Shown here: piece after piece, positions 5,356-54,140 of the stretch | Numbering within the stretch: the stretch's first letter is position 1 | How the letters are laid out: each line of letters opens with the position of its first letter | Assembly: GCF_964204645.1 (NCBI RefSeq) | Contig: NC_134026.1 | Location: 20,804,150-20,868,149 of the forward strand | Direction: 5' to 3' | Length of the DNA stretch: 64,000 nt | Origin: Tubulanus polymorphus | Taxonomy: Eukaryota > Animalia > Nemertea | Notes under the pieces: generated by a model | Told to the model about the DNA's origin: nothing | The model's database searches: none | The model's input: only the letters and a program-made list of their open reading frames with translations | Made by a program: the position numbers and the translations under genes

Positions 5356-8300
5356 GTAAGCAATTTAAGAGTTTTCAGTGAGAAATAACAAAAAATTAAA
5401 TATTATTTGAGATTCTTTTACGTATTTGAATGTATCTATTATCTTGTATCTGTTATGATTTCAATGTTAATAAAGCTGTTTACATTTGCAAGTACTAACG
5501 AATATGTAATACGGCATATTCTACTAATCAGGCATTAGGCAAAGCCTCGTAATGCCATTCTTTAAGACCAAAATGTCATCCAACATTACGCTGAATTAAG
5601 TCGCGTCATTATTTTCATGCACTACACTTGTAGGATATGTTGTTTACGGGCAAACAAGTAAGGATCAAATCGAAATTTTCAAATGAGGATTATTCGGTTA
5701 TTTCACTGCAGCCCACAATACCGACAACAATTTTTTTTAACCTTGCTTACCCCATGAGATGGAGTGCCCACGCGTGATAATAAATATGTGCGCGACGCTA
5801 AGCTCATACAATAGGTTAATACCCTTCATTCAGTGTGGGTTTATAAGATGCTACGTATATATCTATAAGCAAGCGTGTATCTTGTTTTGATTGGAATTAG
5901 TTTCTGAGCTGCTCATTCAAGTTTAGAACGAGTCTCCGCTGAAATGTTTTGCAGAGTGTGGGATTAGTTTTTCTAATCACAAAGTGAAGGAACTTCCACG
6001 GAATTAGAATCTAATAAATTTGTGACATTGTAATCTTTTTAGTCACGTGTACGATGTGGCAATTGAAATATTAGATAGCCACTTGATTGCTCGGGCTGCA
6101 ACTGTTCCAACTCTTTCAAGATTTTTATTTTTTTGAACCTGATTCCTGTATATAAGCCGGGGTTGTGAGTTGAGATCGACTCATTGGTCGACTCTGCGAT
6201 TGATTTGTGAATCCAACAGTGGATATCAGTTCTCTAAGTCCAGTTTTTCATTTTTATCGTACCACAGATTTGATGGACTTGAAATAATTTGGAATGAAAA
6301 CATTTTTTTTTAAATTGAATTCGTTACACTAATAAAGTGATCGAGGAGGGGAATTTGAAAAAAAAATCTTTTTAATCGCTTTATTTTGGACAATGATACC
6401 TGAATATTGTCTATTCATTGCCTAAAACACGTAAGTGATGCCACCATTTTTGCAAGTAATGCTTTTTACTGAATGAACCTGACAAATATATCCATGAGAA
6501 CACCATCACCCACCACGATTTATTTTGTGCGTGATGTCAAAAGACGACGTAGTCGTGGAAATGAAATAATAAATGTTTATTTCTGTATCAATATCTATGT
6601 TTAAAAATGAGGGGGTGCCGGGAAAAATATAGAAATTATTTCTTTTTATACCGAGTAATCGGGAAAGTTCGTTGGCGGTTCCATGATAAAAAAAACAACA
6701 AAAGATCTTCATTGAAATATATTCATGTTGTGCGTGAAAAAAATATTTGAACGCATAAGATCGAAGTCCAATTAAGCGAATACAAATTGAGGGCTTTACT
6801 TACTGCATGTTGATTGTAAGTTAAAATGGACGAGTATCATTCGTCGTGTCGATACGTAAGAGATAATTGCTTTTAACTGTCATTCTCGTAAAGTGCCTCT
6901 TCTAAGAAAACTTAAGTGTTTAAACAAAGGGAAGCAAATCTTATGATCAGAACGTGATAATTTACTGTTTTCAAGCGATTAAGTATCGCCATGTATTATT
7001 TCCGAGGGTTCTCGATGTGACAGATTCGCCAGAGACGCACCGCTATTCGAATCATTCTAAAACGCTATACGATGAGCCTAAGTAACGTATCTCCCTAGTA
7101 CCGGTTGTAAATTTACAGTTTTTTTTTCTAAACGCTGAATTTTCGCCGCGACGACTCGAAACTTATGAATACTTACGATGCATATCGGATTTACGACGGA
7201 AGTCGAACGATCTGACTTGTCTACGGTCTAATTTCGATGTTATTGAGTTGACGTTAAGAATAGAGATTGATAGCGTTCTAAGCCATTACCGACGAAGAAC
7301 TTGTGCTCGCGGTTGTTGTTTTCTCGACGGGACACGTCGCGAACTGAAATTCCATATTCTTTCGAAAGTCGTCGTATGCGAGGCGAGAGTGGAGATCGTC
7401 GAACGCGCGTCTCCGCGATTTATATTTCAAGACATCCTATTCGCGGCGTGAGAACGATAGTAGCCAGGCGAAAGGCCAATCCACTAGGTGGCGTGTTGTA
7501 TGTCGGTTATGCTCGGCTGGTAATATTTTTTTTTCGGTGATCAACTAGATTTTATTTTTGAGTACACCCTGAATCCGTGAAAACCGTATGAATTTGAACG
7601 CTTTTCGTAACCTTGATATTTCAACAAATGCAACAAGCCAGTCAGCTAAATTCATCAAAAGATGTATAGAAGTCCCTCCAATGGTTAATATATTGTAGAT
7701 AATGAATGTATGTATTGTTGATACATTTGATATATTTTATTAAGAAAAGTTAATGTTTTCTGTTGTTTTGTAAAATATGTTATACATACTTTATAGTCTC
7801 CCATATTCCGTAGAAATGGTTGGAGTGTAAATAAAATCTTAATTCTAATCCTTACATAGTGAAACAATTGTTTCTATATCTATTTGAAAATCTTGATTTT
7901 GATGTTGTGGCCCTTATAGAAAAATAAATTCATTGTGTAGACGCTGTAACAATGTTCAAACTGTGGACAAGAAAATTTTTACCAACCCTTCAAACCAGTG
8001 TAAAACGCATATGAAATTTATGGTTCATTCTCATCGCCCAAAAATTTAGCTTCTACTCGACAAAAATCTGGAGGAATACAGAAATAGACTACAGCTGTGG
8101 GAAATTTTAGAAGTATTTTTCGTGACTACTTAGAAATGTTTGCGTGAGGTTGAATCATTCTGCCACGGTGTCCAACCGTTCAACATCACATCATTGCGGT
8201 GTCTCACTCTGTGAAACAGGATTTGATACCATCGAATAATCGTACAATTGCTCGGAACGAAAATATTTTTATCGGATAGAAAATGATTCATTTCAAAAGA

Positions 8301-11300
8301 ACGATTAAGACGAATCACAAAGTTTTTCGGTGTATGCTGAATATGCGTATATTTTGCGGAGTCTGTGTGTAAACCATTGTAAAAAACGCACTTAACATTG
8401 TAAAGCTTGAAATTTTGATCGTGCAAGAGACTGGGCCCATATCCATGCATCCACTAGGAAAATATGAAGGAGCGTCCAGAGGCTGATGGATGTGCCAGCA
8501 AAATATGTTTATCCTCCCCCAATAACAACAACTCGACGATAAAGTCGATCTACAAGCGCCAAAGACATACTCTCGGCTTCCGGGTTGAAAATTGCGTGTA
8601 TGTTTCCATTAGAATAGGTTAACTCCCTATATTGGCTGTATCTCAGCTTTCGATTTGTCGCACTGAAGGCCTAAGGCAGAAAAGCGAGGACGAACTTTTT
8701 TATTTTAGGACCAATCAAGGTGCCAGTGGTACGTAGCCCTTCAATTTGTCTATGTATACACAAATAGCTGGATCAATTTTTCAACTGAAGAAAACTTCTT
8801 AACCGCTATCAATAGTGAAAATGAAATGGCGGTCAATAAGTCAAAATATTCATATAATGTCGTAACTTAAAATCAATGTCGTGCCAGTTTCTGCATCATG
8901 CGTGGATGAAGATCTTAACAAATAAAAACCTCCGCGTCATGCGCGCGGTACGGATTCATCAATTATTATCGGCATAACTCGATAGCGATGCGACGATAAA
9001 TCGGAACAATCGTCTATTGTCTTGGGTGTTTTGTTGACGGCTACCGCGTCGATGAGTGACAAAACGCGGAAACCTTCGTATTTCGATTCGCTGACATTTC
9101 GCACCCAGAGACACAAAAGATCGGCTAAAAGTATGTCGCGTGCGCGCACGAGAAAATGAAATACCGAAGTAAAGAAAGTTTTCGGTTTCGGTATCCGGTT
9201 ACTGGTGTAGTTTTGAGACGTAGGAAGGTAACGCTATCCTAGGGTATCAGATTTACTGAATATTTTTCAATCTTGATCTTTGAAGTGTTCGCGTGAAATT
9301 TGTTTTGCACACGACGACAACTTTTACAGGCCCAAGGTCGACTTTAAACCCACGATCACACAGCAACGAGTTGAATTTGACCCTTGCCTAATTAGAGAGC
9401 GCGTTTACGCGTTAACCACTCAGACACTCGATACTGAACAATGCTTAAACAAAGCGAAGTGAATCAACTCAGGAACCAGTAGCAATTCACACGCAGTAGT
9501 TTGACCCTGCTAAAATTTGGTTCGGGCCTCGTCTGATGTTGGTCTGGCTAAATTTGTTTAAAACAAACATCGTTTTCAGGTCCATGTGCTCGCAGATGAT
9601 TTCGCGGATAAACTTGCGAGTCGTTTTGTGAAGCTCGAAAGCGTAAATATGAGGATTTTGAAACCGTGTCCTGCCTTAGATTGGGCCTCCAACGACATGA
9701 AACTTTCCGGTCAATACGGGGTCGTCACATACCCGAAGCACATTGCTACAACACTGTGAATGCATTTTCTATCAATCATGATTCAGATATAAATGCAGTA
9801 GATTTCACTTAATTCTGATGACCATGCCTATGGATTTCTTTGAATTAGTAAGTGAAAATCTGGATTGAAAAATCCGAATTAAGCGAGTTCTCTGGTAATC
9901 TTACAGCTCTAACTGATGACCAAATACCTCCTGGGTACGGCAGGGACGGATATATGAGGTTCATCCCTGGCAATGACAAAACTATTCGCTATCAGACAAT
10001 GCTATCAGACAATGCTTAGCCCTTATCTCTTATAGAAATTTTCCGGTGACATGTTCAGTCCGTTACTGGATGCTATTTCAGATCTTGCGTCTGTCACAGA
10101 GTCATTAGGAAGTAGTAATTCATGAGTCTCTGGATTATTCACCCATTCGATCGCTGATTGCCCGATTGCCATTTACGGATATACCGTATATAGTGTGCGC
10201 GAATTCTGCGCTGTTCATTATCGCAGCCGGGTTCTTCGGAAAGTCTTCGAAAGTTTTGGAAAATGGGAATTCCTTCATCAGGCCCTAGAAAAGCTATGGA
10301 AATTTTGTTTGTTTTTCTCTAAGGCTATGGGAAATGTGTGGAAAGTCGGAAAATGGCCTAAAAATAAAATTTTCCTTCCATATTCAATTTTAGACGTTGA
10401 GCCCAGATGCCTACTACCCACGTTTCATTTACTCATTGGAATTTTACTCAATCAAGTTTAAAGTTTTGAAGAATTTGTTAAGTAATGAACGTTACACGCA
10501 CACGATGCAGTGAAACGCAGAAACAATAGCGTTGAATGTTTCATGTTTCTCAAACGCGCTCAACGCAGGGAAATGTTCGTAAACATGTTTCTGTCTGCTG
10601 TTTTCCGTGTTTGCCTGAATCATGCGCGTCGGGCTTAGCAAGTCTGGTCCTGTGAAATGACGAACCTGATATAAGTTTGTGGAAAAGACCTCGCTGATTT
10701 TGCACCGTACAACATCATATTTCCCGGCAAACTGCGACTTGCCGTTGTATTTTTTTTTGCGGTGAATAATAGTTTTTGTGATCAGTTTCACTTGAAAGGA
10801 TTAACTCCTAAATCAATTCAATGTAAACTAGGAAGTAATGGAAATGTAATAGAAATTTAATCAATTAGGGAGTTTTTTTTCATTTTTGAGATTTACTGGC
10901 TATGATAGGCTATCATAGCCCATTAGATCCGCAATAGTCAAATTATTTCAAATTGGAAGCACATTGAACGTGGTCTTGGTGTATGTGGTCATATTTATGA
11001 TGCGTAATGGTAATATAAATCTTTGACTGGTTTAAACGTTCCGTACAAAATCCCTTAGCCATTCTCCATATTGTTGGAATACTTGTTGTCGAAATCAACT
11101 GCAGAATAAAAATGTTTCTCATGTGTGTGTTTAATGTATCTGGAATTGAAATGAAAAGCCTAAATAACTTAATGTTTAAAAATAGATTTCTCTTTTACTC
11201 AAACCACTAGAAAAATCAGCGTAAGACAGAAGATGTACTGCTCCTCGAAAGCTACGGGCGACTTCGCGCGGCGTACCTCCCCGATGACTGCCAGAGCAAC

Positions 11301-12084
11301 TTTGTCGACGGGAAACGACGTAGTTTTATAACTCCTGCCGGGAATACAAAAAACCCTTTGATTATAGTTCGTACTTCTCCGGCGATAGATTTTCGTGGCC
11401 GAAGGGCGTGAAAAGTCCGCCGAGTCTGCCACCTTTACGACAGCCTTGATTGCTCTGGGACTTTTCATTTTCCGTCCTGAATTCATCACAGACGCGACTA
11501 CGCGCGAAACAAAATGCTTAGTGATTTGAGGGCGAAAATGAGAATTAAGTGAAAAATTAGTCTCTTTTTTGTTGTTTTCGCGTTTCATTTGTTTTGTTTT
11601 CGGGGCATTCCTATAGATCGTGTATTTTCAACGGGCTCATCCATCAATTCCGAGAGAAATAGAAAAAAATCCGTTGATCTCCGACAAGATTTAAATCTCT
11701 CCCGACGCATCGGGATAAACGAGAGAAAAGAACAACGATCACGAATTTACGGTAATTTGAAAAATGCTGTATTTTTTCAACGTCGCACATTCAGAAGGGA
11801 GTGGGTCGTTCGGACATGAACTTCAAAACGATGCGATTGTGGATACTATTTTTTAAACGATTTCGCAGGCACGTGAACGATCGAATGACGTGTATGACAA
11901 ATTTTCAACGTTTGCCCCGGCTCGCCGTGTGGATTGTTCCGATAGATGCGAACTATATTGCCGCCAATAAACAAGTGCTTAGTTGATTTAGGTGCTGTCT
12001 AGATTGACGTGATACCTTACATGGTCACAAATGAGAGCGATTTATATTCTAAAGCCGGCAGCGTTTGATTGGATTTGATGATTG

Positions 12085-12090
12085 TTTATT
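12085..12090 (-). terminator. Candidate poly(A) signal of the NKY gene
   Basis: AATAAA on the minus strand about 540 nt after the stop codon. Confidence 0.35.
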
Positions 12091-12628
12091 TTTTCACCTG
12101 CCCATCGATTCGCGACATATATACACACACGACCATCATCATCATCATCATTATAGTCTATAAAAACTATCGCACACCAGGATCCAGTTCTTACATGTAC
12201 GTAGCGGCATGCAATCGATTTTTCGCATTAATGTTATATTGTCGTAAGATGAACTTCGGAACTGAACAGAAAAACCGTGTTGATATTCGACAATATCGTT
12301 TCTCCCATTTATAAGTTGTTCCATACCGGGACACGATTTCAGCTGGAAACGACGTGCACATACATGAATATATTTACACAGTTTCATAATCGCGAGCCGA
12401 ATTTAGCTGCTTCGATTGGTTCGTTCGTATATTGCCGCGCGTGTGTGTCGTGTGTCTGTGTTTTGGGTTTTTAATGTCAAAAAATAAAGTTTTCTAGAAA
12501 AAAAAAACGTTTGCAAGGTCTTATTAGTCTTTTAGTCTTATTTCGTATAAACTCGGCCGTGTGGTGTGGGGGGTTGGAGAGCGCACGTACGCGCGGTGCT
12601 CGCGCCGTCGTCGTCGTTGTCTAGATGA

Positions 12629-12967
12629 TTACCTACGTCTGCCGTAGCGCATCAGTTTGTTCGCGACGCCCTTGTCCGGGATGCCGCCTTGCGCCACCTG
12701 CGCGGCCAGCTCTGCGGGCACCTCGGCGTATCCTTGTCCCGGTAGCCAGATCCACGCCATTTCGCCACGTTTCGACGGCGCGGCGTCTATTTTTAAGTCG
12801 GACATCGCGTTCAGCTGGTGGTGTCGGCGGCCGGCGATTTGTAAGAGGCGCGCGATCGTCGGGTCGAATTTGTTCGTTCGGCGGAGATCTTTGTCGGACA
12901 ACGCGTCAGTTAACACGGCGCTTACGAATACCAGATAAAATAGTTGATATATCGTTGATGTCTTCAT
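12629..12967 (-). CDS. NKY: Neuropeptide KY type-2-like (NKY-2/LFRYamide-like) precursor, 112 aa, single coding exon
   Basis: Hydrophobic signal peptide (about aa 1-22), dibasic sites RR/GRR/KR, and a C-terminal 41-mer GEMAWIWLPGQGYAEVP...NKLMRY followed by the G-RRR amidation/cleavage signal. The WIW.P.QGY..VP...K.MRYamide pattern matches annelid NKY-2. The segment is GC-rich. A splice acceptor (tctttctatttttcAG, AG at 13006-13005) lies just upstream of the ATG. Confidence 0.88.
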   Translation of the reverse strand: MKTSTIYQLFYLVFVSAVLTDALSDKDLRRTNKFDPTIARLLQIAGRRHHQLNAMSDLKIDAAPSKRGEMAWIWLPGQGYAEVPAELAAQVAQGGIPDKGVANKLMRYGRRR

Positions 12968-13887
12968 ATCTATATTTGAGGGGAGTTTTTCAGTCTTTTT
13001 TGTCCTGAAAAATAGAAAGAGGTGTACATATATATAGACGTGCTGGGTTAATCAGAAGTACATGATTGTATATGAAAACAAAAGATCAACAATTCAGCAA
13101 TGAAGGAAAAAGGGAAAAAAATTCATATCTATTAAGTGAAACAATATTCTTTGCGTGATATTTACAAATCCATGATATATGAATTTCGCGATGTTTTAGA
13201 AAATCGGTTTGTTAGAATCCGAACAATTTTATTGGAGGCAATTGATGGCCGAATGTAAAGTGTCTAGGTTTAAATATACAATGTCATATTTAATTCTTAT
13301 AGGTTACCTTGAAGTTTACAGTATATTGAAGAACACGAGTTTCGTCGCCGATAACTATAACTTGTGTATTTTAGATTGAATTCATATTGTTTGAATCCAA
13401 ATATGGGGCCGGTTCTGCCAGCCCTGTAGGGAATGTATATACCCTGAAAAGCAGTTCTTCTTAAAGTAGAATGAAATAGATGGATTATTTGATTTCTTAT
13501 CGTCAATATTTCCATTTAAATGTAAGCTTTAGATATTTCATTAGCGATTGAATAACTATTTTATTTCATCATTCGTTCTTGATTAGAAACGTCATCCGTA
13601 GGGCCTTCCTTAAAAGATGGCTGACTCCATTAAACCCCTTTGAGATCATTGAATTGCCAATTGGGTTTAGTTTTTCAGGCACCTCGGGCTTTGTTTTTCA
13701 GTGGTATTAACTCTTAATCCTGGACGTGTTAAATTTCACTATCCCTGTGATTTGAAAATTTGTATCCCCGAGGGAGAGCGATACGTAGCCTAGGAGCGTA
13801 AAGCTTAAGCTTGACAAAATTGTTATGTCTGAATTTTTTGGCTTACTGAAAAATTGGTGAAATTGTATCTAAACCTAAACAAGATAA

Positions 13888-14295
13888 CTAACTTGAAAGT
13901 TTATTGCCGCCATAAAAATGACACGTATATTGCTTAATATAGTCGAAAATGAATAATATACAAATTATATATAACTAGTGATCAATGAAGTTGATTTGGA
14001 TTTGAATATATGGCTTATTGAATTCAATTGACCGGCAACCAGTCTAACCCCATGAATTGATGACGTAGAGTACATTTTCTCAAAAGCTATTATTCAAACT
14101 CATCAAAAATAGAATAAGAGTTATGAAATATATTCAGTGACGAAATGAATACCAAAATTCATAATTGTAATCGTATTGTACGCCAATATCGATGACGTAG
14201 TGCACATCGACTCGCACAGAACTCCTTGAATAACTGATACTCGGTATTTGTGTATATATGTACATTATAATAGTGGTATTTACGACGTCAGAAAA
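13888..14295 (+). repeat. Interspersed repeat family B (other copies at about 17330-17862, 22505-22920, 24070-24580 reversed, 55355-55740)
   Basis: Shared core ttgaattgaccggcaaccagtcta(g/a)ccc...ttgatgacg(t/c)agtgcacat in five dispersed copies of about 400 bp. Confidence 0.75.
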
Positions 14296-16492: not shown

Positions 16493-16741
16493 CATCCTTC
16501 CCCGGCAGGGATTCGAACCTGATGGCATCGAGATTGCCACGGTACGAAACGCTGCCCTAGACCGAGGTGCAGCTACACACGCGCGGCTAAGATGATGTTA
16601 TTAAGCTAATCACATATCCCCTTTTATTTTAGCCCGGGTTTTCCGTTTATAGTTCTTCCGTGAAATCTACCTCGGCGATTATATACAACGAGCAATCTGA
16701 TTGGTGCCGCAAGTTTTCGTGCGGTTAATCTGCGCGTGTAC
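16493..16741. mobile_element. Truncated copy of the tRNA-like-TIR element
   Basis: Left TIR and internal sequence match 51562-51730; the right TIR is missing. Confidence 0.7.
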
Positions 16742-20800: not shown

Positions 20801-20884
20801 TGAACAAACACTTGCGTCTACTAGTTGTATTCCGATTTCAGATTTTAATTTATTGCTCCAGAAATTGTACAATTTTTTCGAGCA

Positions 20885-37017: not shown

Positions 37018-38726
37018 TTTCACCTTGCTTTATAGTCGACATTTGAAATGAAATCGGAGTGAAGGTGGCAGCTCCCGTTGTTCTTAATTGTATTTCTTCG
37101 ATTTTTCAAACGTTCCCAGCGCTCGTGTTCTAATAGGGGATATCGAATGTCTGTTTCAATGACCCGAAAATAATTCAAGATGATACCCCTGCGAATGCAA
37201 TATTTCCATCGTCGCAATATTTGATAATCTTTCCAACGCAATATTTCGCAATGTTGAACTCCAAACATGATTATGTAGTGCGTAAACTTTGTCGGATTAA
37301 AAGATTACGGCTTACCGATCGAAAACGATTACGGTCCTGCGTCTTGCGGTTTGGTCCATGCCACGTGTTAAAGACCCCTCGCCGTTCATTAACCCCAAAT
37401 GATATCATTGAACGGCCAGTAGTGATTCGGTTTATAGATGCTTTCATGCAAAGATCTGATCACTTTAGTGGGCGATTTGATGATGTCATACAGGGGATTC
37501 AAGAGCTGAAATCTTTTAATAGAAAGTTATGAAATCTTGAATACAATTTCCCTCTAAAAGCAGCGATGATTAAAAGGAAATGTAAACGCAAATTGCCGTT
37601 CTGGTATTTCGACCAGATTTGGCGCGAGCTAAGCGTCGAGAACGCACTGTTTTTTTACGGCTGTTAATACTGGCGTGGTGAAGCTGTTATTTTTTAGATA
37701 GTCAAAGAATACGCACGCGCGCAGTACAATATACACCGCACCATCTTCATCGTCATCGCTTCGATTCTGAGGAGCTTCAAACGATGAAGGATTGTCCGTA
37801 CACCACTTGAACGTTACATCTGTCGCGTTGCATTGCGAATGTACGTCGATCGGATGGCGAGAGTGGCGTACTCGAGCCGCCAATGAGCCGCGCACGAGCT
37901 CGAGTATAATGATATTCCGTGTACGGCGGCCCCGAGTGAATTTTTTTTTTCGTTTTGCGAATTCAAACAGCGAAACTAGTTCTCTATGAATAGTCAGGAA
38001 ACGAAGGCTATAGCTACATTCGATTTCACTTTTGGCCAAGAGAGCTCTCTGGTCGGTCACACGAGGGTTCTGCTCAAAGTAAGTTCATTGTACGAGATGA
38101 ATTATTTCATTCCTTCTAAACGTATATTCTGTTGTTCATCGGTGCAGTTGTCAAAGATGGTGCCGTTACAGTTTTAAGTTCAAATGTTGAAAAAGCGAGG
38201 ATGGAAAGCGCAGGTACAGCGCACAGCCGTAGCTGATGCTTCTCGAGTTAGTAGCAGATTAGAATATTCACCTGGCGCGTGTGAAGCCGATGAACGATGG
38301 CTTTTTGTCGACAGTTCGAACACTTTTTGAATGAAGAAAATGAAAACGACTGATCCACTCGCTCGACGACGTTTCGCAAATCCCGTAATCATAACCGACG
38401 CATTATACGATGTGTAGGAAATCGTCGACGCTATCTCACCGGCGAGCTTTTCCAATCAAGAGGCGACGCATTGCAGAGAAAAAATCGTTTCCGTATCTAA
38501 TCGACGCGTGACGAATGATTTCGAAGCAATCGCGACGTTCGTGACGTGTAGCGAAAATTCGGTGTAACCGCCCGGCCTCGCGTGTCGTGGCTGACGGAAA
38601 TTTGCGTTAACCTACGGAAATCCTCGCCTAATCGGACAAGTTTCGACGACGATTATTCGTGTCGCTTCGAGATATCGGACACAAAATTAGCCGGAAACGG
38701 CCCCTTGACTCTCGTCACATTGTCCT

Positions 38727-39464: not shown

Positions 39465-39688
39465 CAGAGCTGCCAACTGTTTCTGATTTTCAGTATTTGC
39501 GACTTGTACCTTGCAACTAGAAATACTGGTTTGATTTGCTATGTGTGGAAATATGGAAGATGTTACTGATGGTCTTACTGTTGAAAACCGATTAACTGAA
39601 CATTTCCTTTCATAATTCAATGAAATTTTACAGAAAAAAAAAATTAATTTTTTTTACTGATAGCACTTTTCAGATGTTGGCAGCCCTG
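39465..39688. mobile_element. hAT-like MITE
   Basis: TIR CAGAGCTGCCAAC / GTTGGCAGCCCTG. Confidence 0.55.
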
Positions 39689-42199: not shown

Positions 42200-42385
42200 T
42201 ACGGAGCCTCGGAGGTGACACGGTGAAAAATGAATATGTTTTAGACGTTAAGACGAAAAAATCTTTTCCTTCGAAAGAAAAAGTCTTTTCGTGGGAACGA
42301 AAAGTTTTTCGTGGCCACGACATAGTCTTTTTGGTGGAACGAAAAAAATATTCATTCTCCACCATGTCGCCTCCGGGGCTCCGTA
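42200..42385. mobile_element. TA-flanked MITE, family C (second copy at 49818-49989)
   Basis: TIRs of about 40 bp: TAcggagcctcggaggtgacacggtgaaaaatgaatat / atattcattctccaccatgtcgcctccggggctccgTA. Confidence 0.8.
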
Positions 42386-45322
42386 CATATCATACAGGGT
42401 GACGGAAAACAAAGCATTTACGTAGATACACATGTACTAGAAATAATGAACATTATTGACAATAGGTTTAATCGAAACTATAAATTGACTGACTCGTGCT
42501 TGATTTTGACCTTTGAAGAAACGAGCGGAGATCATTTGAATTATTGACGACAACGTAGAAGGCGATCTGTATATATGTAAACAACTGATATTTCAAATTC
42601 AGCCACGTCTTTTTTTACACCAAACTATTATGAGTCTTCGAAAGGGAGTGAATCAGCCGCAGCGTTTTCTTAGGGCGAGTTCGTAGATCGTCGAAATCGG
42701 TTACCGGTACGTAACGAGAAAGTAACTGTCTCGTCGCTGGTCGACGGTTGTCTATTCCGTTCACTCATGAAATTATGATTATAATTCTATCGGCGTGTAG
42801 TTTTCACGCTGTGATGAAAATTGGAGAAAATTTTAGCGTGTATTCAATAAGGGCGACTCCGAGAATATCCAAATCACGTTCGGAAGTAGATATTAAATAC
42901 GGTATACCGGACGGACTTGGTTTCGACAAGGGCTGATAATGTTCCGCGTCGGTTATGAAAATTCTTCTATTGTTATGCGTTAGCAGTATCAGAAATACGC
43001 ACCTTTTTGATACGGTAGTTGAAGGGTAACATTAGTGAAAAATTCTGAAAGCATGTTAACTCACATATCCCGCTGACTGAAAATACGAGTGCCTCTGACT
43101 GGGTGTTCTGCCATGTCGGGAAATCGACGATGATTGCAATTCAAAAATTTAGGGGAATTAATGAATAAAACCGAATAAAACATGATTCTAATTTGCCAAG
43201 GGGTCGATCCCGTGGGTTTAAACGGAATTGCATAATACCTTTCAATTTCTCGTGCAGTTAACGATAATACAATTGTTAGATTATCATAAATCCAGTCCAG
43301 ACCGTGCTTTGATGTTTTATCATTGCTTCCAAATAGTAAAAAAAAGGTTTAAACTCATCATTCGGGGTAGGGGGCTGTACACCAATCTTTGGGGAGTTTC
43401 TTCCTTGAACTCCCCATATGCAACCGCGCGATTTTCAATGAAGGTTTAAGCCTCCGAAGAATGGAAGCGAAATACCGTTATCACTTAAAATGATATCCAT
43501 GGTCTAGGTAGATTTGTACTTATAGCGAAGCTGTATTTATATATCCATATATAATATTCTACAGTGACAAATACATAATTGTATTACAATGTTTAGTACA
43601 GAGATGACGGATAAACGTATACAAAGATATTGATATGAATATTAGCGCGGACAGTAGAAAGAGGTCTTCTTTGTACTTATACAACATATTCTCACAACTT
43701 CCACTACTCGCGAAAGTACAATTATGATTAAGCTAATTTGTCGAGAAGTTGCTATTCTAGAAATTGAGTGGGGAATCGCGAGGTGTCGTTGGTTTACGAA
43801 CTCAGATCAGTTATTAAATTTCATAGCTATCTACTAATTATCGAATGCTATTATAAGGTGTTCCCGATACATATGGGTTCGGTTTGAATGCATCTTTACG
43901 GTACGTATCACCAGGACCGCCTGTTCTATCGTCGAGACTTAAGCCCAAAAGTGGTCATAAGTATTAAGAATGGCCATAAGATGGTCTTTGACGTCATGAG
44001 TCTAAGCCATGTCTATGGACCCCCCCGCCCCCTATTGCAGAGGTGGCGACCGAAACGCACTTGCACGAATCACTTTTAAGAAGCGTAGTTTTAATCTCAT
44101 CGAGTTTGAATATCAGACTGTTTGAAGTTGGATGCGCAAAAAATTACGCGAGTAATGAAAATTCATATAGGCTATAAGGCGATTAGAAAAGTGTTTTCTT
44201 GTCACCCGCGGCATTCAGAATTTCGACGTAAACCTTCGGGGGAATGGGATGCAATTATTTGATTAGCGCATTACTTAATGTTTATGCGGATTTGTTGCCG
44301 GAATGGTGAGAGACTGGAAAAAACAGAATTCTCAAACTCGCGGCCTCGAGCAAGATTTCATAAAATATGAAATGAGCTTGAATTTATTTTGTAACCGTCA
44401 TGACCGACACTTCGTCTAACTCGGTCGTACATCGAAAGCGGTTTTGAATTCGTAGCCATCGAGGTCGTGTAATGCCCGTTTTGTAGTTAGCGAAATGAAA
44501 AAAATATTAGTCAGCATCCTTAGTTTCAATCGGTTATAACGAATGTGTCACAAGCGTTGTTTCTCGGTGGAGATTAGAAATTCTTTTTTTATTTCTTTAT
44601 TTCGGTTTAGCCTTCAATCTATGCCTCAAATAAAATAATTTTTTTTCGGAAATCCCGGTCCGATACTTGATCAAGTAAAAACGCTTTCTTCCCCGGAGAG
44701 AGATACATGGCATCGATGTACATACGCTCATCTAATCTCTTCTCATCCCAATTCGTAATGTACTCATTTTAATCGTTCCGAACGTGTTCGGCCATTTTGA
44801 TTGAATAATGAATTATTCAATGTTGCAAAAATTATGCTATAGAGAAATATATTTTCCGAGGTGACATTTTTTAAATTGCTTTTTAAAGTATGATGATACT
44901 CTTGAAAACAAATCACAAAAGGAAACACCATTGCCGTTAGCAAATGCTATTTAAAAAAATACTGTTTAGAGATGTTGTAGAATTTCATGAGTTGTTGATC
45001 TGAAGAATTCTCGATTAAAAGTTGAATATTCGCGAAGTGACTGGTTATCAAGTCGAACAAATTCCTTCAAAACCGAATGACAAGTCGATGAAATGTTTTT
45101 GAAATATTAGTTTCAATTAGGCGCTCTCAAAACAAATAGAATGAAACGGAATGTAAAGTTTTTACGGATAAATCCTACAAAGTTTGAAAAAAGCTTTGAT
45201 ACAATTAGTATTCATCGAAGTGCATTATTTTCCGAAATATCAGACTAACCCGCGTATAAAAACTATTCGAGTAATAACTAAAAATCGCGAATGAGAAAGA
45301 AACGAGAAAAAAGATTTCTTAC

Positions 45323-45449
45323 CTTGAATTACGATATATGTATGGATTATACGGGTTTTAATGATTGATATCCAGCAGGAGTTCAATGATCACTGGCTCT
45401 CCGGCTGTCTGTCTAACTGGTGACAACTGGCTGATAGCGACTACTTATA
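45323..45449 (-). promoter_or_regulatory. Inferred core promoter and non-coding first exon (about 45418-45323) of the NKY gene
   Basis: On the minus strand, TATAAG (45449-45444) lies 31 nt upstream of an Inr-like CCAGTT (A at 45418). The roughly 96-nt exon has no ATG and ends at the consensus donor CAAG|GTAAGA (GT at 45322-45321). A (GC)n tract lies just upstream. The link to the 13004 acceptor is inferred. Confidence 0.55.
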
Positions 45450-45741
45450 CCACTCGCCTCGCCTCTCAGTCCGTCTCGTGTGCGCGCGCGCGTGCGCATA
45501 AAATCTGTGTGCATCATTATGATGTGCGTGCCCCCGTTAATTTATCTGGCATTATACGTAGTTATCTTCGAAATGCAAAATATCTTTCCTTTTTTATAAT
45601 GGAAGAGGACTGAAAATATAGTTTACGACAGAATTTTAACTTAAGTCCCTCGCTAGCGAGCCGACATATCAGTCCGACAACACGGCGAAACAGCGTTATA
45701 CATGAAGAACGTTATTTTTATTGAATTCGAATCAGAATTGC

Positions 45742-45907
45742 ACGGCAGCATCCTGACGACGATTATATTTATCTTTTTTTTGTAGCTCCCAAAAACATGA
45801 TTATTTTGAATGACAAAAAAATGACTATTTTAAATGAAATTTATTGTATGTGTGAAAAAAATCACACAGAAAAATGATTTATATCTATGTCGTCAGGATG
45901 CTACCGT
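45742..45907. mobile_element. Short MITE about 300 bp upstream of the inferred NKY TATA box
   Basis: 19-bp TIR acggcagcatcctgacgac / gtcgtcaggatgctaccgt. Confidence 0.6.
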
Positions 45908-48389
45908 AGAATTGGCGTATTTGTGCTCGTAGAATGTTTGAGTTGAGTTGAGCACCGGCATGAAAGAAAACAACGGCGTTAGAATTGATGAAAATATCGC
46001 GTCCATATTTGAATGCATGAAGTTTTGATTATGATAATGATAATGATATTTACTTTCGTTAACCATGTCACAATTATATATAATTCATACAACTATTTTT
46101 CACTCATCATAAATTGCAACGAAATACAGTTAGTTGCGCAATCTAAATCAAATATAATTCAACTCCGAGATCTTTTTCCGTATATAGCCTGATCGCCTGT
46201 AAGTCGAGAGAAAAAATTTTCATCATCTGCTTTCCTGAGCGTTATCGAATTTATCTAAACAATTTACAAGAAATGATGTCCGCGTGTTATGTGTGTGTGT
46301 GTATTTCATTCGATTCGCTCCGCTGACGCCGCTCGCGCGCGCACGCACGCAGACGATCTCGGCGCAGTGACTTTAGAAAAAAATATGAAGAAATTTCATC
46401 ACGGCTGAAAATTGAAGTAGTAATCCGTCGAAATCAGTCACGGATACCGGCTGTATGAAAGTCGCCTGCTACTGCTGTCGGCGATAATTAATTTGATAAA
46501 CATTCGACTGCCACAGAATGAAAGAAATCTCGGAGTTTATTTGAACCGAAAATCGGGAATCGAGGGACTGTAATCCGCTCGGCTTTTCATCGGTTCTATC
46601 GGCGACGCTGTCACGAATCGTGACTGCAGATCGTTCCAGAAAATGGTCGAAAATTGATGTTTTTTTTTTAATGTTTGACTTAAAAATGAGCTTGTGACAT
46701 TCATTTCGTAGACATTCATTCAGAGGAGGGAACAAGGGAAAAAAATAAAATCGAAAATGTTTTCGAAAATCATCAACATGACCATAACTTTTACAAGTTA
46801 CTCGATTGGAATCAAGACGAGCATAACAAAAACAAAAAACTTTTTTGTTGAAGAATTGTGATGAAAACACGAAGGAGGACTAAGAAGAAAATTTGCTGAT
46901 TTTTGCAGAATTCTGGGGGCGGATCCGTGCCCCGAGTGATTAACAAAAAATGCTTTCCTAGAGAAACAGAAGTTGATGTTGACCACCGGGGCGAAAGGGT
47001 CGAAGAAAGTTAAGCGACTGCCATAGTGACAGTTAAAACCATGATACTTGTCGGATGGTCAATGTGGTTTACCTTCATAACCGCATTCAGAGAAACTGAC
47101 CCTGGTGGTCATTATCGAACTTTAAAATATGCACTCGCTCTTTTAATCTATATCGGATCCGTAGCAGAAATGGTTGTAGCAGTCGGTGTAACCGAGCCGC
47201 GATTGAAACATGATAGATGTTCGTGGAGATTTGTGCTAATGACAGGATGCAAAGCCGGTGACGTTTCTACCGATCTCTTAATGTACACTGATACTTAATT
47301 GGAATGTAACGTAAAGCCCGATTTAGTGAAAATGACGCGCGTAATTTCACCGCCGAGGATTCGGCGTACGGTCCCCATCGGACTACCGAGGCTGGGTCTT
47401 TCAACTGCATCGGATTGCATTAAAACAGATGGAAAACAACCGCGTATCGCGTTTGCGTTCATGTTTGGCCAGCCGTGTTAAATCGCAAGCATACGCAATA
47501 CTCTAATGCGCACTATCCCAGACATCTCGATGATCGGACGAATCTACGTATTTCGATATCTTCGAATAGATGGGCGAATATCTTATGAAATTAACAAAAA
47601 CCGACAAAGAGGGTCATTGGCAAAATCTAAACCTGGGGTTAGAAACATAATAGAATAATACGGGATTTCTGATAAGCTTATGATGACATCATCTAAGCCG
47701 CAATAAAATCTATCAGTATAAATTCCATGTGATGACATTGAGTCCAAAAAGAAGCATTCCTCCGCATTTTCCGGAAAAGTTAAGGCGCTAAGCAGGCCTA
47801 TCACAAGTTTTCGTAAAAGTGAACACTTCACAGAATTATTCATATTCGCTACAAACTCTGTAATAACATCACGGTAAAGCGAACGTAATGATATTTTGTA
47901 TCTGTGATCGGAGTTCTGGGATCCCGTGCGTGTAACTCCTCTAGTCAGCCAGCGACAGGTTCTTATGGTGTAAACGCTCGCGAAATCTACTGCAAATCAG
48001 CGAATGAACGACACATTTCTATTCGGCTCACAATCGCGAAGGACCGCCGGATTTCTAGAAATGTGATTTTTGTGTAAATCAAACAGCCCTTTATGCGCTG
48101 CCATCCGCCGAAATCGGCGACGCGATTTTATCGTAGAATTCGCCGTGAAATTTAAAATTAATCCCAAGCCACATGGCGGCTCTCACCGCCGAGCAGAGCA
48201 CGGTGCTTCTAAAAACTGATCGGCGAGGTTAATGCCTGCCTACAATTAGCGCTAAATTCAAGCCGCTTACGACAACAACAGCCATGATGAAATCAGCGGA
48301 TACATTGACCGAGCTGTTTTGATCTTGAAACAGGGATTGACGCTTTTTTTATTTGGTTGATAAATTTCGTTTGATTTTTAGGGTTTAAT

Positions 48390-48505
48390 CCAGTTATTTT
48401 GGGAAGTTTTAAAGACGCTTCAATGCAATGTCTTAATATTTGGGTTACACATGTATCTACCCTAGACACACCTTCAGCCCAAAAACTGGCCCTGTCAGAC
48501 TCCAT
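48390..48505 (+). mobile_element. Internal fragment of the same HINE family
   Basis: Near-identical to about 1230-1345 (ccagttattttgggaagtttt...acatgtatctaccctagacaca.cttcagcccaaaaactggccct). Confidence 0.7.
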
Positions 48506-48868
48506 GGTATGGTTCTCCAGTAGCACCATTTATAAATCACTGGAAACGCATTTTCATCGATATCTTAATTATAATCGAGGCTTTTCCCCCAAAACTTAGT
48601 TCATCAGTACGTTTTAAATAATTTAGCCTTCCACATATCATGTCAGTTAGCTCCTTGGTGGTGTTCTTTAAAAAAGCCGTACGTTCTGAGTAACTGAATT
48701 TGACGAAATCCTTATACTCCTCCAGTACCAAATTTAATCCAGCATGGCAGAAACCCGTTATCGCTGCTTTGCAGCTATATTTCTTTATTGAGGTTCCCTG
48801 ACAAACCCACCACACCTACCAAGAGCGAAACAGGGGGTTAGCGGAAGAGCATAGCGGCCGTATAATTA

Positions 48869-49146
48869 CTTGAAATTTTGACTTCTTAACTCGAAATTTC
48901 AACTTCGTAAGCTCGAATTTTGACTTAGCAACTCGAAATTTCGACTTGACTTGCTAAGTGGAAATGTCGACTAGGTAGCTCGAAATTTCGACTTTTTAAC
49001 TCAAAATAATTGACTTAGTAAACTCACTTTTTGACTTTGTTACTCGAAATTTCGTTTTTTTACTTACAAGGTGGAAATTTCGACTTTTGAACTAGAAATT
49101 TCGACTTATTAGCTCGAAATTTCGACTATGTAAGTCGAAATTTCAC
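48869..49146 (+). repeat. Minisatellite, unit of about 21-22 bp (ctcgaaatttcgacttnntaa), about 12 copies
   Basis: Repeated gaaatttcgact motif. Confidence 0.85.
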
Positions 49147-49817
49147 TATCCGCGCTACCTTTAGAAAGTATAGTGTATTACTGACATTGGAATATGTAAC
49201 ATTTTATTGCGCTTCGGTTATATTGAATTTTATTGCCGGGTCATTAACACGATTTAACAATTGATATTTAGATTTTGGCCATCTATCACGAAGAATGTGG
49301 CTGCCATTTAGCCGTGTTTACCCTCGGCGATTCTCATTTGGTCGACTCTGAATGGAGCTCTTTTAGCGCAGAGGATCGGGATGACGCAAACACGCCAATA
49401 AAACTTCATTGTCTTTATAAGTGCCGGTGTGCGCTAGATTTGTTTTTATGTGCCACTGGTGGGTATAGTAGGCTGATAGCTCGATCATGTGAATAAAATC
49501 GTCAGGCGTCGTCGTCCCGGCTGAATAAAGTTGAAGTTGCGTTCACAGAAAAAAAAACATGCACGCACTCAATACGAATTATTTGCGAATTATCATATCT
49601 TATTCGTTTACATTTACTGCTGTTTAGACAGTGCAAAATTAGGACTATTTCCCTGATTTCGAGCAATGGGTCTTTTGAAGGTCTTTAAAAGGCTTAAAAG
49701 ACTTAGATCTGTCGGAGAAAGTTCAAATAAGGCCTGTTTTCTATTCTTTTCCATGGATGACCGAATCATGTTTAAATGTTTGGCGTTACGTACTTCCAAG
49801 CTACTGCCAAAGCCGGT

Positions 49818-49989
49818 TACGGAGCCCGGAGGTGACATGGTGAAAAATGAATATTTTTTATCGTAGGAACGAAATAATCTTTTCGTTGGAACGAAATGAA
49901 AAAAAAAGATTTCGTTCGAACGAAAAGATTATTTCGTTCTTACGAAAAGAAATATTTACTTTTCACCGTGTCACCTCCGGGGCTCCGTA
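49818..49989. mobile_element. TA-flanked MITE, family C
   Basis: Same TIRs as 42200-42385; nearly palindromic throughout. Confidence 0.8.
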
Positions 49990-50022
49990 GCTGATAGACT
50001 TATTTATTACATAGAAAACGTT

Positions 50023-50256
50023 CAGGGTCCCTACGACTCCTTGATTCCTTGAACACTCTTTCTAAACCAAAAATGTTTTTCAAGGTCCCTGAATAATATC
50101 CTTCTTGAATTTGAGCTAAACGCCCAAAAGTCCATGAAACTCCTTCTTGAATTTTGAGAAATTGGCAATTAGAAAGTTTATAGGTTCGAAATTTTCTTAT
50201 TGAAAACTCCTTGAAGAGTCCTTGAATTCTGGTATTACTGATCTGTAGGGACCCTG
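50023..50256. mobile_element. hAT-like MITE
   Basis: TIR CAGGGTCCCTAC / GTAGGGACCCTG with internal ccttgaa repeats. Confidence 0.6.
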
Positions 50257-51561
50257 TCCTTGTAATGAACCGTGATGGGAAATATTGATATTTCGTGATA
50301 ACTATTTTCGTAATGAGTTTTAGATCTCGTTTTTACACTACTCATGCGTAATTAATCGAAAAATTTATGACATTTTGTAAATATATCTTTTATTATATCC
50401 CTGTAGTTTATGGATTACCAGCGGCAAGGTCGAATTTGTGAAACAATTCCTTTCGTCTAATTAATCGTAGAATAGCCTCGTGATCCGCCACTCGATCAGT
50501 GTCTATTTCGCAATTTTTTGCCATATCGGAAAAAAATGTATATTCTATTTTAGTTTATGCGCTTGTCACGCCTTAAATACGACACCAGAAATGTGGTCGA
50601 CACCTCGCCAGTTTCCACAGGTCGCTCTGACTCCCTGCGCGTTACATATATAGACTTCCAACGCGAATCAGTGATTTCGAAAGTTCACAATCAAACTAGC
50701 TGTCGCCGTATCACCTGGTCATTGGATAATTGAATAGGCATTGCCACGTGATGAGCGTATTTTCATATATTTGATTCCTGGCAATTGAAGAATCGGCCCG
50801 TAATATTCAGAACCCATATAGTTCCACGACTAACGTGAATATCAACTAAATCGGTACCGATTAACAATCACGATTAACATCATTGCTACCGTGATTACCG
50901 TGTGCTTGATAATGATGTTTATCTGGCATTGACTTCGCGGAATTCAATTATAAGCGAAATGAAGTGTTACTGAAATTCAAGAAAGACCTTATAATGGAGA
51001 TATATGATCCTATCTATCTGAATATATATGAGTTAAACTTACGCGTATCCAATTTCGATAAGCGTCATCGTCGTAACGATGAATATGATTTCAGGTCTGG
51101 CGACTGACTCGGTACCGACCCCCCGCTGTTTTATGAAGACAATAACAGTAACTTGTCAGCCCGATGGGGCATAGGTGTATCTTATTAAAACCACGGATGG
51201 GCGATATTATCATTCGAATCCAACTGACATCGTGATAAGGCACGGGACGCGTATCATCTTCGCCGATGTCAGATATTGCTCGCGGCCCGGCGGGTGACTT
51301 GCACTTGTCGCATTTTGATATCTTACAACGATGTCGCGTGTTTACAAATAGCTATCCATCACACCCTGTTACGCTCCTCCATTCATTAGCATATACGTCA
51401 ACGTCGTTATTATATATTTCGAAATCAAATTAAGTGGGGAACATTTTTTGTTTTTGTCTGTGCATTTTGTTCAACGCTTCGTTATGCCCTTATACTAGCA
51501 GGATAACGACGGTTTGGTTGATGCGGAGATCAGCGTTACAGTAATAAGAAAAATAAGGATC

Positions 51562-51817
51562 CCATCCTCCCCCGGCAGGGATTCGAACCTGATGGCATCG
51601 AGTTTGCCACGGTACGAAACCCTGCCACACTAGACCGAGTTATGGTTCTTCCGTGAAATTTACCTCAGCGATTATACAACGAGCAATCTCATTGGTGCCG
51701 CAACTTTTCGCGCGGCAAAGCTGCGCATGTACCTGCGCACCCGGTCTTGTGGCAGGTTCGTGCCGTGGCTGAGTGTAGCGATGCCATCAGGTTCGAATCC
51801 CTGCCGAGGGTGGATGG
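51562..51817. mobile_element. Palindromic element with tRNA-like (A/B-box) terminal inverted repeats
   Basis: Termini catcctcccccggcagggattcgaacctgatggcatcg / cgatgccatcaggttcgaatccctgccgagggtggatg. Other copies are at 30239-30556 (reversed) and 16493-16741 (truncated). Confidence 0.75.
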
Positions 51818-53465
51818 AACATCCTCACTGGTAGGCTATAGGCTAGTTCACTAATTTCCTCACAGAGGGAGATATCTTCCAAAATGATGATGATGTTTTT
51901 TACTTCATTTTGTTATGATTTTCTTTTCCTAAATCTAATGCATCCTTGCATTCACATTTTAAGCTAAGCTAAAAACCTCCTCACAGTTATTTAGGACCAA
52001 GTAATCGTCACATCAACGCGAATCACCCCGACCAATAACCGTGATGTATCCTCAAAAGAAAAAACCCGACCAATTTTTATAGTTATCTAGATACAAGAGA
52101 TGTAGTATAGTCATTAGCGGTATAAATTCACCTCCCTGGTGAAAGGTTTTCCTGAAGCCGTGAAAATATACAGACCGTTTCATACAAAACCAGTCCCTCT
52201 GAAAATGTTCCATAGCTCCAGTTGAAGTCGTCGTAGGATATGAGATTGCTGAGGGGGTGTTGGCTAGGTCCCCGGAGAAACAGAGCGTGTCTGAATACTG
52301 ACAAACTTCTGCTTGCGTAAAGCTGACCACAATTGATTGAAGACAGACTCAACAGGACACAGGCCTTAATTAATTCATTGCGCATTTTGTATTATAAACT
52401 TAAATAACATAACAAAAAATCATTAGAGGCTGTTCATATATTTGTTTTTCGGGAGATTTGACTTCGGAATAAAAGTTCCTTAATCCACGAAGTGTCCTTG
52501 ATAGATAGTTAATACGTCATAAGGCAGTTCTGCCCTTATTTGTATTAGCAAATTTGACTTTTGAGAAGTTTTTGAAATCCTCTACCTGTCCACCAAATAC
52601 GATTTCCACATCCGCTCACACCCGCCTCGGCACATCAGTTACAGGTAAACAGATTGTCGCAGTTGCTACTGAACATATGACACGATACGTTTCGTAATTC
52701 TGGTAACTCGATTACTTGGATGCGATTCATAAAGGTTTCCCGATGAAAGGCTACTCGAAGGAACTCGGCACTATCTTGGGGAAATAGAATCTGTGAGTGA
52801 CCAGCTGAAATCTAAGAAGCAACGTTGCCAGAATGTTTCGAATGAATATACATAAGAATGAGTTCGTAATGCAAAATATGCGATAAAACACTGGGGTACC
52901 GGCACACAGCAGATGGCGTGATAATACACTCGGTTATGAAAAAAGTTTATTTTCACTGGACTTTGAACTGGATCTTTTAGGCTCCCAATATGGTCAAAAA
53001 CAAACAAATGATTGGCGTCCCCAATGACTGTATGGTATAGTAATGCTGGAAATCGATTTACTACTGAGAAAAGTTTTCGAAGAAAAGAATTCGATTGATA
53101 TGTAGAAGAAATTCAAGCGCCATAACTGAATCATCTTCACCCGTCAAGGGATTCGAACCCACTCTGCTAAAGCCGTTCCCCGAACCCCTTGACCTCACGA
53201 GTCGTTGTAGTCGTTACTAGCCGACCAGAATTAGGTCGGGCCAATCACAGCGCTTGTTACAAACGACATTAGGCATCTATGGAATTTCCTGGTAAATGGA
53301 CCAATCAGCGAACACGTAGCGAACGCGGAAGTATTGTCGCGTGTTGATATATGACGTCATGCGCAACAGCGCCAGTAATGAAATCACGCTTCGTGAGGCC
53401 AGGGGGCTGGTGGAAGCGAGTTCGGGAGCGATACCGGACCCCTGGCAAGCGAGGATGTAACTGAA

Positions 53466-53770
53466 TAGGCGTTTTTACGAGCATCCGATTTTTGCGATCG
53501 ATTTCGTGAACGATTTGCTCCGATCGTACGATCGAATCGAACGTTCGTAAAAATGACGATGGATTTGGCTAATCACATGACATAAATATGGCGACGTTGA
53601 GGAAAAAAATGTATGGTTTTGAACTACCCGGTGCCGCCATCTTGGAAATCAAATCGCCAAATCGCTCGCCGAGCGAGTTGGTCGATTTCAAAAATCGATC
53701 GGAAAATCGTGTTCGTAAAAACGCCGATCGTGAAATCGATCGCAAAAATCGGTGCTCGTAAAAACGCCTA
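53466..53770. mobile_element. MITE with TIRs of about 40 bp
   Basis: taggcgtttttacgagcatccgatttttgcgatcgatttc / gaaatcgatcgcaaaaatcggtgctcgtaaaaacgccta. Confidence 0.8.
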
Positions 53771-54140
53771 ATAACTACGAGCAAACCTCGGATCCTCGCC
53801 GGCCACAAGTAGAATCCTCGATTGCCACAGTAGCACTGCGGTTCTTCGCGCATCAATAATTTTTGTGGATAGTTTACCAACACTCCCCTCTGCGATCTCA
53901 ATAAAAATTGGCTTCACATACATTGTCCTCAACACTGAAGTTATGGGTCATCACATAAAGTATCAGACTCACATAAAGTATCTTCACAGAATTTATAATT
54001 TGAGTACGGTAATCGAAGTTTGAAAGGCGATCTCGAGTTTGTTTTATGACGACCTTGCAACGGTTACTACCCGGGCTGTAGGGCTTCGATTTTGACCTTA
54101 AGTTGACGTTTAACTCAATTTTCTGTTCGTATATTTTTAG

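Follow-up and report, generated by a model that had tools for sequence, protein, structure and literature searches.

The interval 5356-54140 of a 64-kb stretch of Tubulanus polymorphus DNA (hereafter the window, to which all positions refer) is very likely a single intron of the selenoprotein S gene, SELENOS, with the coding sequence of an NKY-2 neuropeptide precursor antisense inside it. The whole NKY-2 CDS lies between two consecutive SELENOS exons, on the opposite strand (Table 1). Most likely, and we say so with modest confidence, the two genes form an ordinary opposite-strand nested pair with their own promoters, no functional coupling and an occurrence limited to one lineage. The gene identities and the antisense nesting proposed in the preliminary description were borne out by Pfam matches, by a RefSeq gene model and by the motifs of the precursor.

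Table 1. Coordinates of the SELENOS and NKY-2 features in the window
Feature	Position	Strand	Remarks
SELENOS coding exon	524..630	+	107 nt, AG/GT ends; earlier exons left of the window
SELENOS coding exon before the large intron	5266..5355	+	90 nt, PF06936
SELENOS intron	5356..54140	+	48,785 nt, GT..AG, phase 0
NKY-2 coding exon	12090..13004	-	sequence and motif scan; putative 3' end
NKY-2 precursor CDS	12629..12967	-	112 aa (339 nt), single exon
Predicted mature 41-residue peptide	12644..12766	-	residues 68-108; cleavage and amidation motifs
Second, weaker promoter and first-exon candidate	37315..37436	-	upstream ATGs inside; motif scan
Best candidate promoter and non-coding first exon	45323..45449	-	motif scan
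SELENOS coding exon after the large intron	54141..54216	+	76 nt; joined to 56064 by splicing in one contig (run X5)
SELENOS last exon	56064..60490	+	coding part 56064-56155, then long 3' UTR; putative end near 60490

The SELENOS gene in the window

In the sequence, one reading frame spans the coding parts of the four SELENOS exons, and the three introns (4,635, 48,785 and 1,847 nt) all run from GT to AG. The 118 joined residues are the C-terminal 118 of the RefSeq protein XP_074640437.1 (Tubulanus polymorphus, Nemertea), whose gene model makes the same exon join over the 48.8-kb gap. Frame, GT-AG borders and RefSeq model agree with the earlier claim of an in-frame join over 48,785 nt, and the 4.6 and 1.8 kb it had given for the other introns match our measurements.

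The identity of the gene is supported by PF06936, which is collinear on three of the four exons (positions 76-109, 111-136 and 168-191). Exon 524-630 alone stood above the cut-off (31.9 bits vs 29.8, positions 76-109), and the 90-nt exon matched positions 111-136 with an E value of 1.5e-5; the 76-nt exon had no Pfam match of its own and was alignable with clam SELENOS. The product of exon 524-630 is identical to protein P0003, which carries PF06936. P0003 also shows a hydrophobic stretch; the N-terminal transmembrane segment expected of the family would be encoded left of the window. No second copy of any SELENOS exon was found in the 64-kb window, and homologue searches returned one T. polymorphus SELENOS protein only (cluster size 1), both of which count against the halves coming from two SELENOS copies. 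For the accession neighbours of four SELENOS proteins, no mention was found in the literature.

Toward its 3' end the frame contains an in-frame TGA (56147-56149), predicted to encode Sec, followed by GGT (Gly) and the TAA at 56153-56155. The 3' UTR is covered up to 58500; it measures at least 2.3 kb and probably about 4.3 kb, as the length of the contig and an AATAAA at 60482 suggest an end near 60490. Rfam gave no SECIS match and 0 families at the gathering score in the whole window, and a SECIS pattern candidate at 59893 folded no better than shuffles (z 0.37). A hairpin at about 56450-56506 was rejected as a SECIS: it is stable (z -3.8) but lacks SECIS geometry.

The NKY-2 precursor

The antisense CDS belongs to an already described neuropeptide family. 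Its product has a hydrophobic N-terminus, a KR at residues 66-67 and a C-terminal RY-G-RRR, and the mature peptide is predicted from these residues to end in RYamide. Among the ATG ORFs of the window this is the only one that unites a hydrophobic N-terminus with an amidation motif, as judged by a hydropathy heuristic rather than SignalP. The motif AWIWLPGQG agrees at 6 of 10 positions with G[YF]WIWMPAQG, which is a mollusc consensus (PMC6425005). The predicted peptide begins with Gly after KR, not with the Lys of the family name; in the published NKY-2 precursors in the accessible parts of PMC8557429 and PMC6425005, too, Lys is absent after the dibasic site, and an N-terminal Lys therefore does not discriminate. 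The coding exon is preceded by an acceptor AG (13006-13005), has a 37-nt 5' UTR and carries candidate poly(A) signals at 12475 and 12090, as found by motif scan.

The precursor is 67% identical to protein P0002, its sole real relative in the homologue search (1 other protein among 5 candidates). A further search gave four matches, three of them long proteins that were left aside, and an ESM Atlas search with NKY-2 returned mixed neuropeptide families with no NKY cluster. The metagenome locus L001, sole match of its scan, is GC-rich and was dismissed as a chance hit. In Notospermus the NKY2 gene is g14521.

The large intron and the start of NKY-2

There is no N anywhere in the window, and the intron, which is broken up by high-copy repeats, is CpG-rich (CpG o/e 1.41). 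Read-through from the exon end at 5355 meets a stop after 10 codons; on the + strand of the intron, motif scans gave 0 matches for an additional in-frame cassette exon and 0 for a recursive-splice motif. Strand skew is a mutational trace of transcription. A weak T>A plus G>C skew on the + strand across the intron (0.038, 95% 0.017-0.058), as against -0.079 beyond 60500, fits + transcription; it drops to about zero in 45419-54140. A deficit of AATAAA on the + strand in 13006-45322 (25 vs 41) was not significant (p 0.064).

On motifs, the best candidate for the NKY-2 start is 45418, where an initiator follows a TATA at 45449 and precedes an ATG-free 96-nt exon ending in an AG^GTAAG donor at 45323/45322; the second candidate is 37400. 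A unit starting at 45418 (about 33 kb) would fill 68% of the SELENOS intron. The preliminary description had placed the whole NKY unit inside the intron: this stands for the CDS (12967-12629), and since the start rests on motifs, it is a prediction for the remainder. Its proposal that the intron is large on account of NKY-2 is plausible in view of this filling, of the CpG richness and of the long ORFs within the intron, 0 of 89 of which reached the Pfam cut-off; it hinges on the candidate start at 45418. Its further idea of transcriptional interference or co-regulation, tied to the ER, is speculative.

Among the alternatives, the one that survives best accepts the nesting and places the NKY-2 start elsewhere (at 37400, near 13 kb, or at several sites), so that the size of the intron would be only partly due to NKY-2. 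The minus strand holds eight TATA+initiator matches (seven sites), two of them accompanied by a donor; a complete TATA+initiator+donor set turned up once or more in 16.5% of 200 shuffles, and the high-copy repeats that interrupt the intron also speak for this alternative. Against it, the minus strand has no AG^GTAAG other than that at 45323 from 13006 to 54140, the exon ending there is free of ATG, and the TATA+initiator matches are in excess on that strand (eight vs two on the plus strand and 1.7 in shuffles). We regard another start as unlikely, though it deserves some weight.

Under the nested-pair reading that we favour, SELENOS would be transcribed on the + strand through the whole interval and the 48.8 kb would be removed as one intron. 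Transcription of NKY-2 would probably take place in a small number of neurosecretory cells and start at the TATA/initiator at 45418; splicing over 32.3 kb would join its 96-nt non-coding exon to the coding exon, and the product would be an RYamide of 41 residues. Most of the host intron would then be explained by the long first intron of NKY-2 together with its regulatory DNA. Only in the NKY-2 cells would convergent transcription be of consequence, and there it is probably tolerated.

Possible conservation of the nesting

If NKY-2 had resided in the SELENOS intron since the early lophotrochozoans, held there by regulatory constraint, the arrangement would be usable as a synteny marker. The exon sizes of 107, 90 and 76 nt equal those of human SELENOS, so the position of the intron would be old, in line with ancient nesting; the available part of PMC3628699 gives nothing on exons. 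Old nested pairs do exist, such as ceh-10/polq-1, kept across nematodes (PMC12274878, in the portion available). In the octopus, NKY-2 (Ocbimv22002636) is among the transcripts with methylation of both body and promoter, a class of 5,482 out of 38,585 (a base rate of 14%), and its id-neighbour shows a housekeeping-type methylation class; this hints at an older nesting of NKY-2, in some unnamed host. However, the octopus locus is methylated whereas the Tubulanus intron is CpG-rich. The supplement files examined for the octopus (12 of 22) contained no SELENOS label.

The mussel Gigantidas platifrons leans weakly against a conserved SELENOS/NKY-2 nesting. On the scaffold of its NKY-2 gene (Bpl_scaf_61932-2.66), SELENOS was annotated in 0 of the 11 genes listed, two of which are unannotated; the others include PTPMT1, ETFB, PKNOX2, ZNF341, ZC3H3, a UBE2, HSP70-12B and one uncharacterised gene. 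There was no SELENOS row at all among the rows listed in the mussel table, and no SELENOS label in the single-nucleus supplement. The parts of PMC6425005 and PMC8557429 at hand give no genomic context of NKY-2. On balance we judge ancient nesting to be quite improbable, and a restriction of the nesting to nemerteans, or to a subgroup of them, would be likelier than an arrangement common to all lophotrochozoans.

A broader proposition joins several ideas: that NKY-2 has been locked in the SELENOS intron since the lophotrochozoan ancestor, that neuropeptide genes antisense in housekeeping introns follow a wider rule, that the NKY-2 promoter may fire towards the 3' SELENOS exons and alter the amount of Sec-bearing SELENOS in the neurosecretory cells, and that the host is a synteny tag for NKY-2 vs NKY-1, sNPF and PrRP. 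Taken together, these ideas strike us as distinctly doubtful.

Reads across the intron

Run X5 behaves like RNA, although no run is on record as such: it includes a spliced contig, which joins the 76-nt exon to 56064. That contig carries 506 letters ahead of 54141, vs the 504 nt of CDS expected, and none of these letters matched 44500-54138. At 97% likeness, a threshold chosen against repeat noise that may have lost the junction contig, it had no match on exons 524-630 or 5266-5355, where other short X5 pieces did match; allelic differences or the alignment filter may explain this. The 5355^54141 junction expected in RNA has indirect backing from the RefSeq model and the agreement in length, and the missing upstream match at 97% counts against it.

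Among DNA reads, X1 contigs tile 4838-13941 without a break at about 35-45x, linking the exon end at 5355 to the NKY-2 CDS; in 44500-58500 the X1 pieces listed are broken by three repeat gaps, and 14500-44500 was outside the continuity check. X5 had zero cover on the NKY-2 CDS and on its candidate first exon; X6, under the same species label, gave 2 and 0 matching records, blanks that say nothing on expression. That the large intron is an artefact, whether an assembly misjoin or the halves of two SELENOS copies, finds some support in the unmatched upstream exons, the junction not seen directly and the interval outside the read check, but it is very improbable against a 31.9-Mb source contig free of N gaps in the window, a RefSeq model across the join, the single SELENOS found for the species, the continuous X1 tiling from the exon to NKY-2, the 506 vs 504 match and a + strand skew that is positive when taken across the entire intron.

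Significance and comparison with known systems

As it stands, the SELENOS/NKY-2 arrangement amounts to a fact of annotation: a neuropeptide of a described type in a described housekeeping gene, with a layout common to 5-10% of genes in model animals according to the available parts of PMC12274878 and PMC13343718. The finding would gain weight if annelids and molluscs had NKY-2 in the same intron. The receptors of NKY peptides are disputed and their ties to sNPF, NPY and PrRP unclear; a conserved host, if true, would therefore offer a test of orthology independent of short peptide sequences. In practice, knockouts or reporters of SELENOS or NKY-2 in Tubulanus could disturb the other gene.

The SELENOS copy described here shares with its family the collinear PF06936 match and the penultimate in-frame UGA, and it aligns with four bivalve-type homologues at 44-50% identity. 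Compared with human SELENOS, whose variant 2 has a 3' UTR of 573 nt (PMC3628699, in its available part), the Tubulanus gene has a 48.8-kb intron, a longer 3' UTR and no convincing SECIS. Lophotrochozoan NKY-2 precursors, as far as the excerpts of PMC6425005 and PMC8557429 go, resemble the one in the window in their length of about 110 aa, signal-like N-terminus, dibasic site, W-x-W-x-P-x-Q-G core and C-terminal RY-G plus basic residues. The nemertean NKY2 set in the same excerpt of PMC8557429 has the same motifs and varies, by eye, at the same core positions; a published NKY2 that bears this species name is, again by eye, clearly different from that of the window.

Finally, the gene-within-gene layout is of a common kind in animal genomes. 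In the sections available, PMC12274878 counts 567 opposite nested pairs in C. elegans (5% of genes), whose average co-expression is below that of neighbours that are not nested, and PMC13343718 puts nested genes at about 10% of Drosophila and 5% of mammalian genes. The arrangement shares with pairs such as ceh-10 within polq-1 and Drosophila Gart/Pcp (cited in PMC13343718) a neuronal gene that sits wholly inside one intron, on the opposite strand of a host that is unrelated and in broad use; unlike those pairs, the inner gene here is a neuropeptide precursor, with a CDS of 339 nt and a predicted unit of about 33 kb.

SELENOS gene model and evidence for nesting

The four SELENOS exons of the window form a single reading frame, as the preliminary description had it, and a splice check of the sequence found the introns (4,635, 48,785 and 1,847 nt) to be all GT..AG. 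Three of the four exons matched the 192-position Pfam Selenoprotein_S profile in order (positions 76-109, 111-136 and 168-191); no Pfam match was obtained for the 76-nt exon, yet it could be aligned to bivalve-type SELENOS homologues. The 64-kb window contains no N, and BLAST of each exon revealed no second copy in it. With the first exon as query, one protein was retrieved from 64 candidates, XP_074640437.1, the RefSeq 'selenoprotein S-like' protein of the palaeonemertean Tubulanus polymorphus, located on a 31.9-Mb contig. The joined four-exon translation is identical to its C-terminal 118 residues, which implies that the public model likewise spans the 48.8-kb gap.

Features of the SELENOS/NKY-2 locus (window positions)
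Feature	Position	Strand	Remark
SELENOS exon 1 in window	524-630	+	frame joins to next exon
SELENOS exon before large intron	5266-5355	+	frame joins across gap
SELENOS large intron	5356-54140	+	
SELENOS exon after large intron	54141-54216	+	76 nt; aligns with bivalve-type homologues
SELENOS last coding exon part	56064-56155	+	ends at UGA-Gly-TAA
SELENOS 3' UTR	56156-60490	+	end by length
Stable hairpin	56450-56506	+	in 3' UTR
NKY-2 CDS	12967-12629	-	112 aa
Possible second amidated peptide	12830-12883	-	precursor residues 29-48
High-copy repeats	1761-2333, 1142-1346, 48387-48502, 51563-51816, 53156-53815		non-coding

A 1,657-nt contig from X5, a sequencing run with RNA-like behaviour, corresponds to 54139-54213 (letters 505-579) and 56061-57138 (letters 580-1657), so that the last SELENOS intron is spliced. 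The 506 letters preceding 54141, none of which matched within 44500-54138, agree in length with the RefSeq model, which has 504 nt of coding sequence there. This indirectly supports the 5355^54141 junction proposed earlier, but the junction itself was not seen, and the contig did not match either upstream exon at 97% likeness; other short X5 pieces matched there. Allelic differences or the read-matching filter could explain this miss, given that the left part of the window diverges by up to ~2% (8 differences in 384 letters, 300-683) from X1, a run behaving as genomic DNA. Six X1 contigs tile 4838-13941 without a break at ~35-45x, which links the SELENOS exon with the NKY-2 CDS, and the X1 pieces listed for 44500-58500 are interrupted by high-copy repeats, three times ahead of exon 54141. 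The high-copy repeats listed in the table for the window as a whole comprise short elements, of which some have inverted ends, and a tandem array of 154 nt; their depth in X1 is in the thousands or higher.

Skew on the plus strand (T>A plus G>C) was 0.038 over the large intron (95% block bootstrap 0.017-0.058, 97 blocks), about zero in its final 8.7 kb and -0.079 beyond 60500. Transcription-linked mutation bias is an established source of such skew, and the pattern therefore fits plus-strand transcription across most of the interval. Altogether, we consider it highly probable that the nesting is real.

Within the large intron, none of the 89 stop-to-stop ORFs of at least 78 aa reached the Pfam cut-off (one gave a sub-threshold match), Rfam returned no family, and no in-frame cassette exon was predicted on the plus strand. 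CpG o/e was 0.52 and 0.84 to the left of the intron (0.70 without repeats) vs 1.41 inside it (8 vs 97 bins, p 1.4e-5). As high values persist into the last SELENOS intron and the 3' UTR, this contrast may just reflect 5' gene-body methylation. The rise is abrupt, from ~0.7 to ~1.4 near 4-6 kb (1-4000 vs 5356-60000), and is possibly the edge of such methylation.

SELENOS 3' end

The RefSeq model terminates at the UGA at 56147-56149, which is followed in frame by Gly and TAA, and thus probably lacks Sec and the final residue; the predicted penultimate-Sec layout is that described for human SELENOS in the available part of PMC3628699. Rfam, pattern and fold checks found no convincing SECIS. The 3' UTR hairpin (z -3.8, equalled in 0 of 200 shuffles) is not SECIS-like and has no Rfam match. 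Coverage by two overlapping X5 contigs takes the 3' UTR to 58500 or beyond; judged by their length it reaches ~60490, adjoining an AATAAA at 60482.

NKY-2 precursor and start site

The NKY-2 ORF was upheld: its N-terminus is hydrophobic, KR stands at 66-67 and the chain ends in RY-G-RRR. No other ATG ORF in the window combines such an N-terminus with an amidation-type end. The mature product is predicted to be a 41-residue RYamide. The precursor is 67% identical to P0002, an unnamed JGI protein; its core AWIWLPGQG agrees at 6/10 positions with the NKY-2 consensus in the accessible text of PMC6425005, and by eye its motifs recur among the nemertean NKY2 sequences in the portion available of the PMC8557429 supplement. 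In the same material, the NKY2 published as T. polymorphus is, by eye, clearly unlike this precursor, which suggests that a second species may stand under that name, or a paralogue. A second amidated peptide might lie between RR 29-30 and G-RR 46-48; this segment is almost identical in P0002 and the published Tubulanus NKY2, where, however, the second cleavage site is not conserved. NKY receptor assignment is contested, according to the accessible parts of 10.1101/712687 and PMC8557429.

The acceptor at 13006-13005, if used, requires an upstream non-coding exon. Scanning 13006-54140 for TATA plus initiator gave eight matches on the minus strand and two on the plus strand (1.7 in shuffles); two minus-strand matches, 45418 and 37400, had a donor. 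The start at 45418 put forward previously remains the best candidate because it has the sole AG/GTAAG on that strand and an ATG-free 96-nt exon, but it is unproven; at least one TATA-initiator-donor set occurs in 16.5% of 200 shuffles. If correct, the NKY-2 unit occupies 68% of the large intron.

Conservation and comparison with known nested genes

Conservation was assessed through gene ids in published supplements. The available part of the PMC6425005 supplement lists the NKY-2 gene of Gigantidas (Bathymodiolus) platifrons as 61932-2.66 and that of Octopus bimaculoides as Ocbimv22002636. The mussel gill table (PMC7750550 supplement file 3, seen in part) listed 13 matches for '61932'; with two plain numbers dropped, 11 gene rows remained among them: NKY-2, two unannotated and eight annotated. 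SELENOS was not among these eight, which leans against a conserved nesting but does not settle the question, as the 14 'seleno' rows listed contained no SELENOS either. As far as the accessible material of PMC9476566 goes, octopus NKY-2 has methylation pattern 1 (body and promoter methylated; 5,482 of 38,585 transcripts, 14%), and the next id, Ocbimv22002637, the housekeeping-type pattern 2 (supplement file 6). This would be expected for a gene within a methylated host, a hint qualified by the unnamed host and the 14% base rate. The value of the pair as a synteny marker hinges on conservation of the nesting.

No description of this pair was found in the literature covered, where the two names were not searched jointly and subscription papers were mostly outside; the available parts of PMC4200219, PMC12257675, PMC3890597 and the PMC11299980 supplement held nothing on NKY-2 genomic context. 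The Tubulanus locus very likely holds a genuine nested pair, with both members from known gene families and in a widespread layout: in the parts of the sources available, C. elegans has 567 opposite nested pairs, 5% of genes (PMC12274878), and nested genes make up ~10% in Drosophila and 5% in mammals (PMC13343718). The ER-based functional link between SELENOS and NKY-2 proposed earlier is so far speculative. In C. elegans, mean co-expression of opposite nested pairs is below that of non-nested neighbours, and in one pair an inner neuronal gene triggers a short host transcript of no evident function (PMC12274878, same parts).
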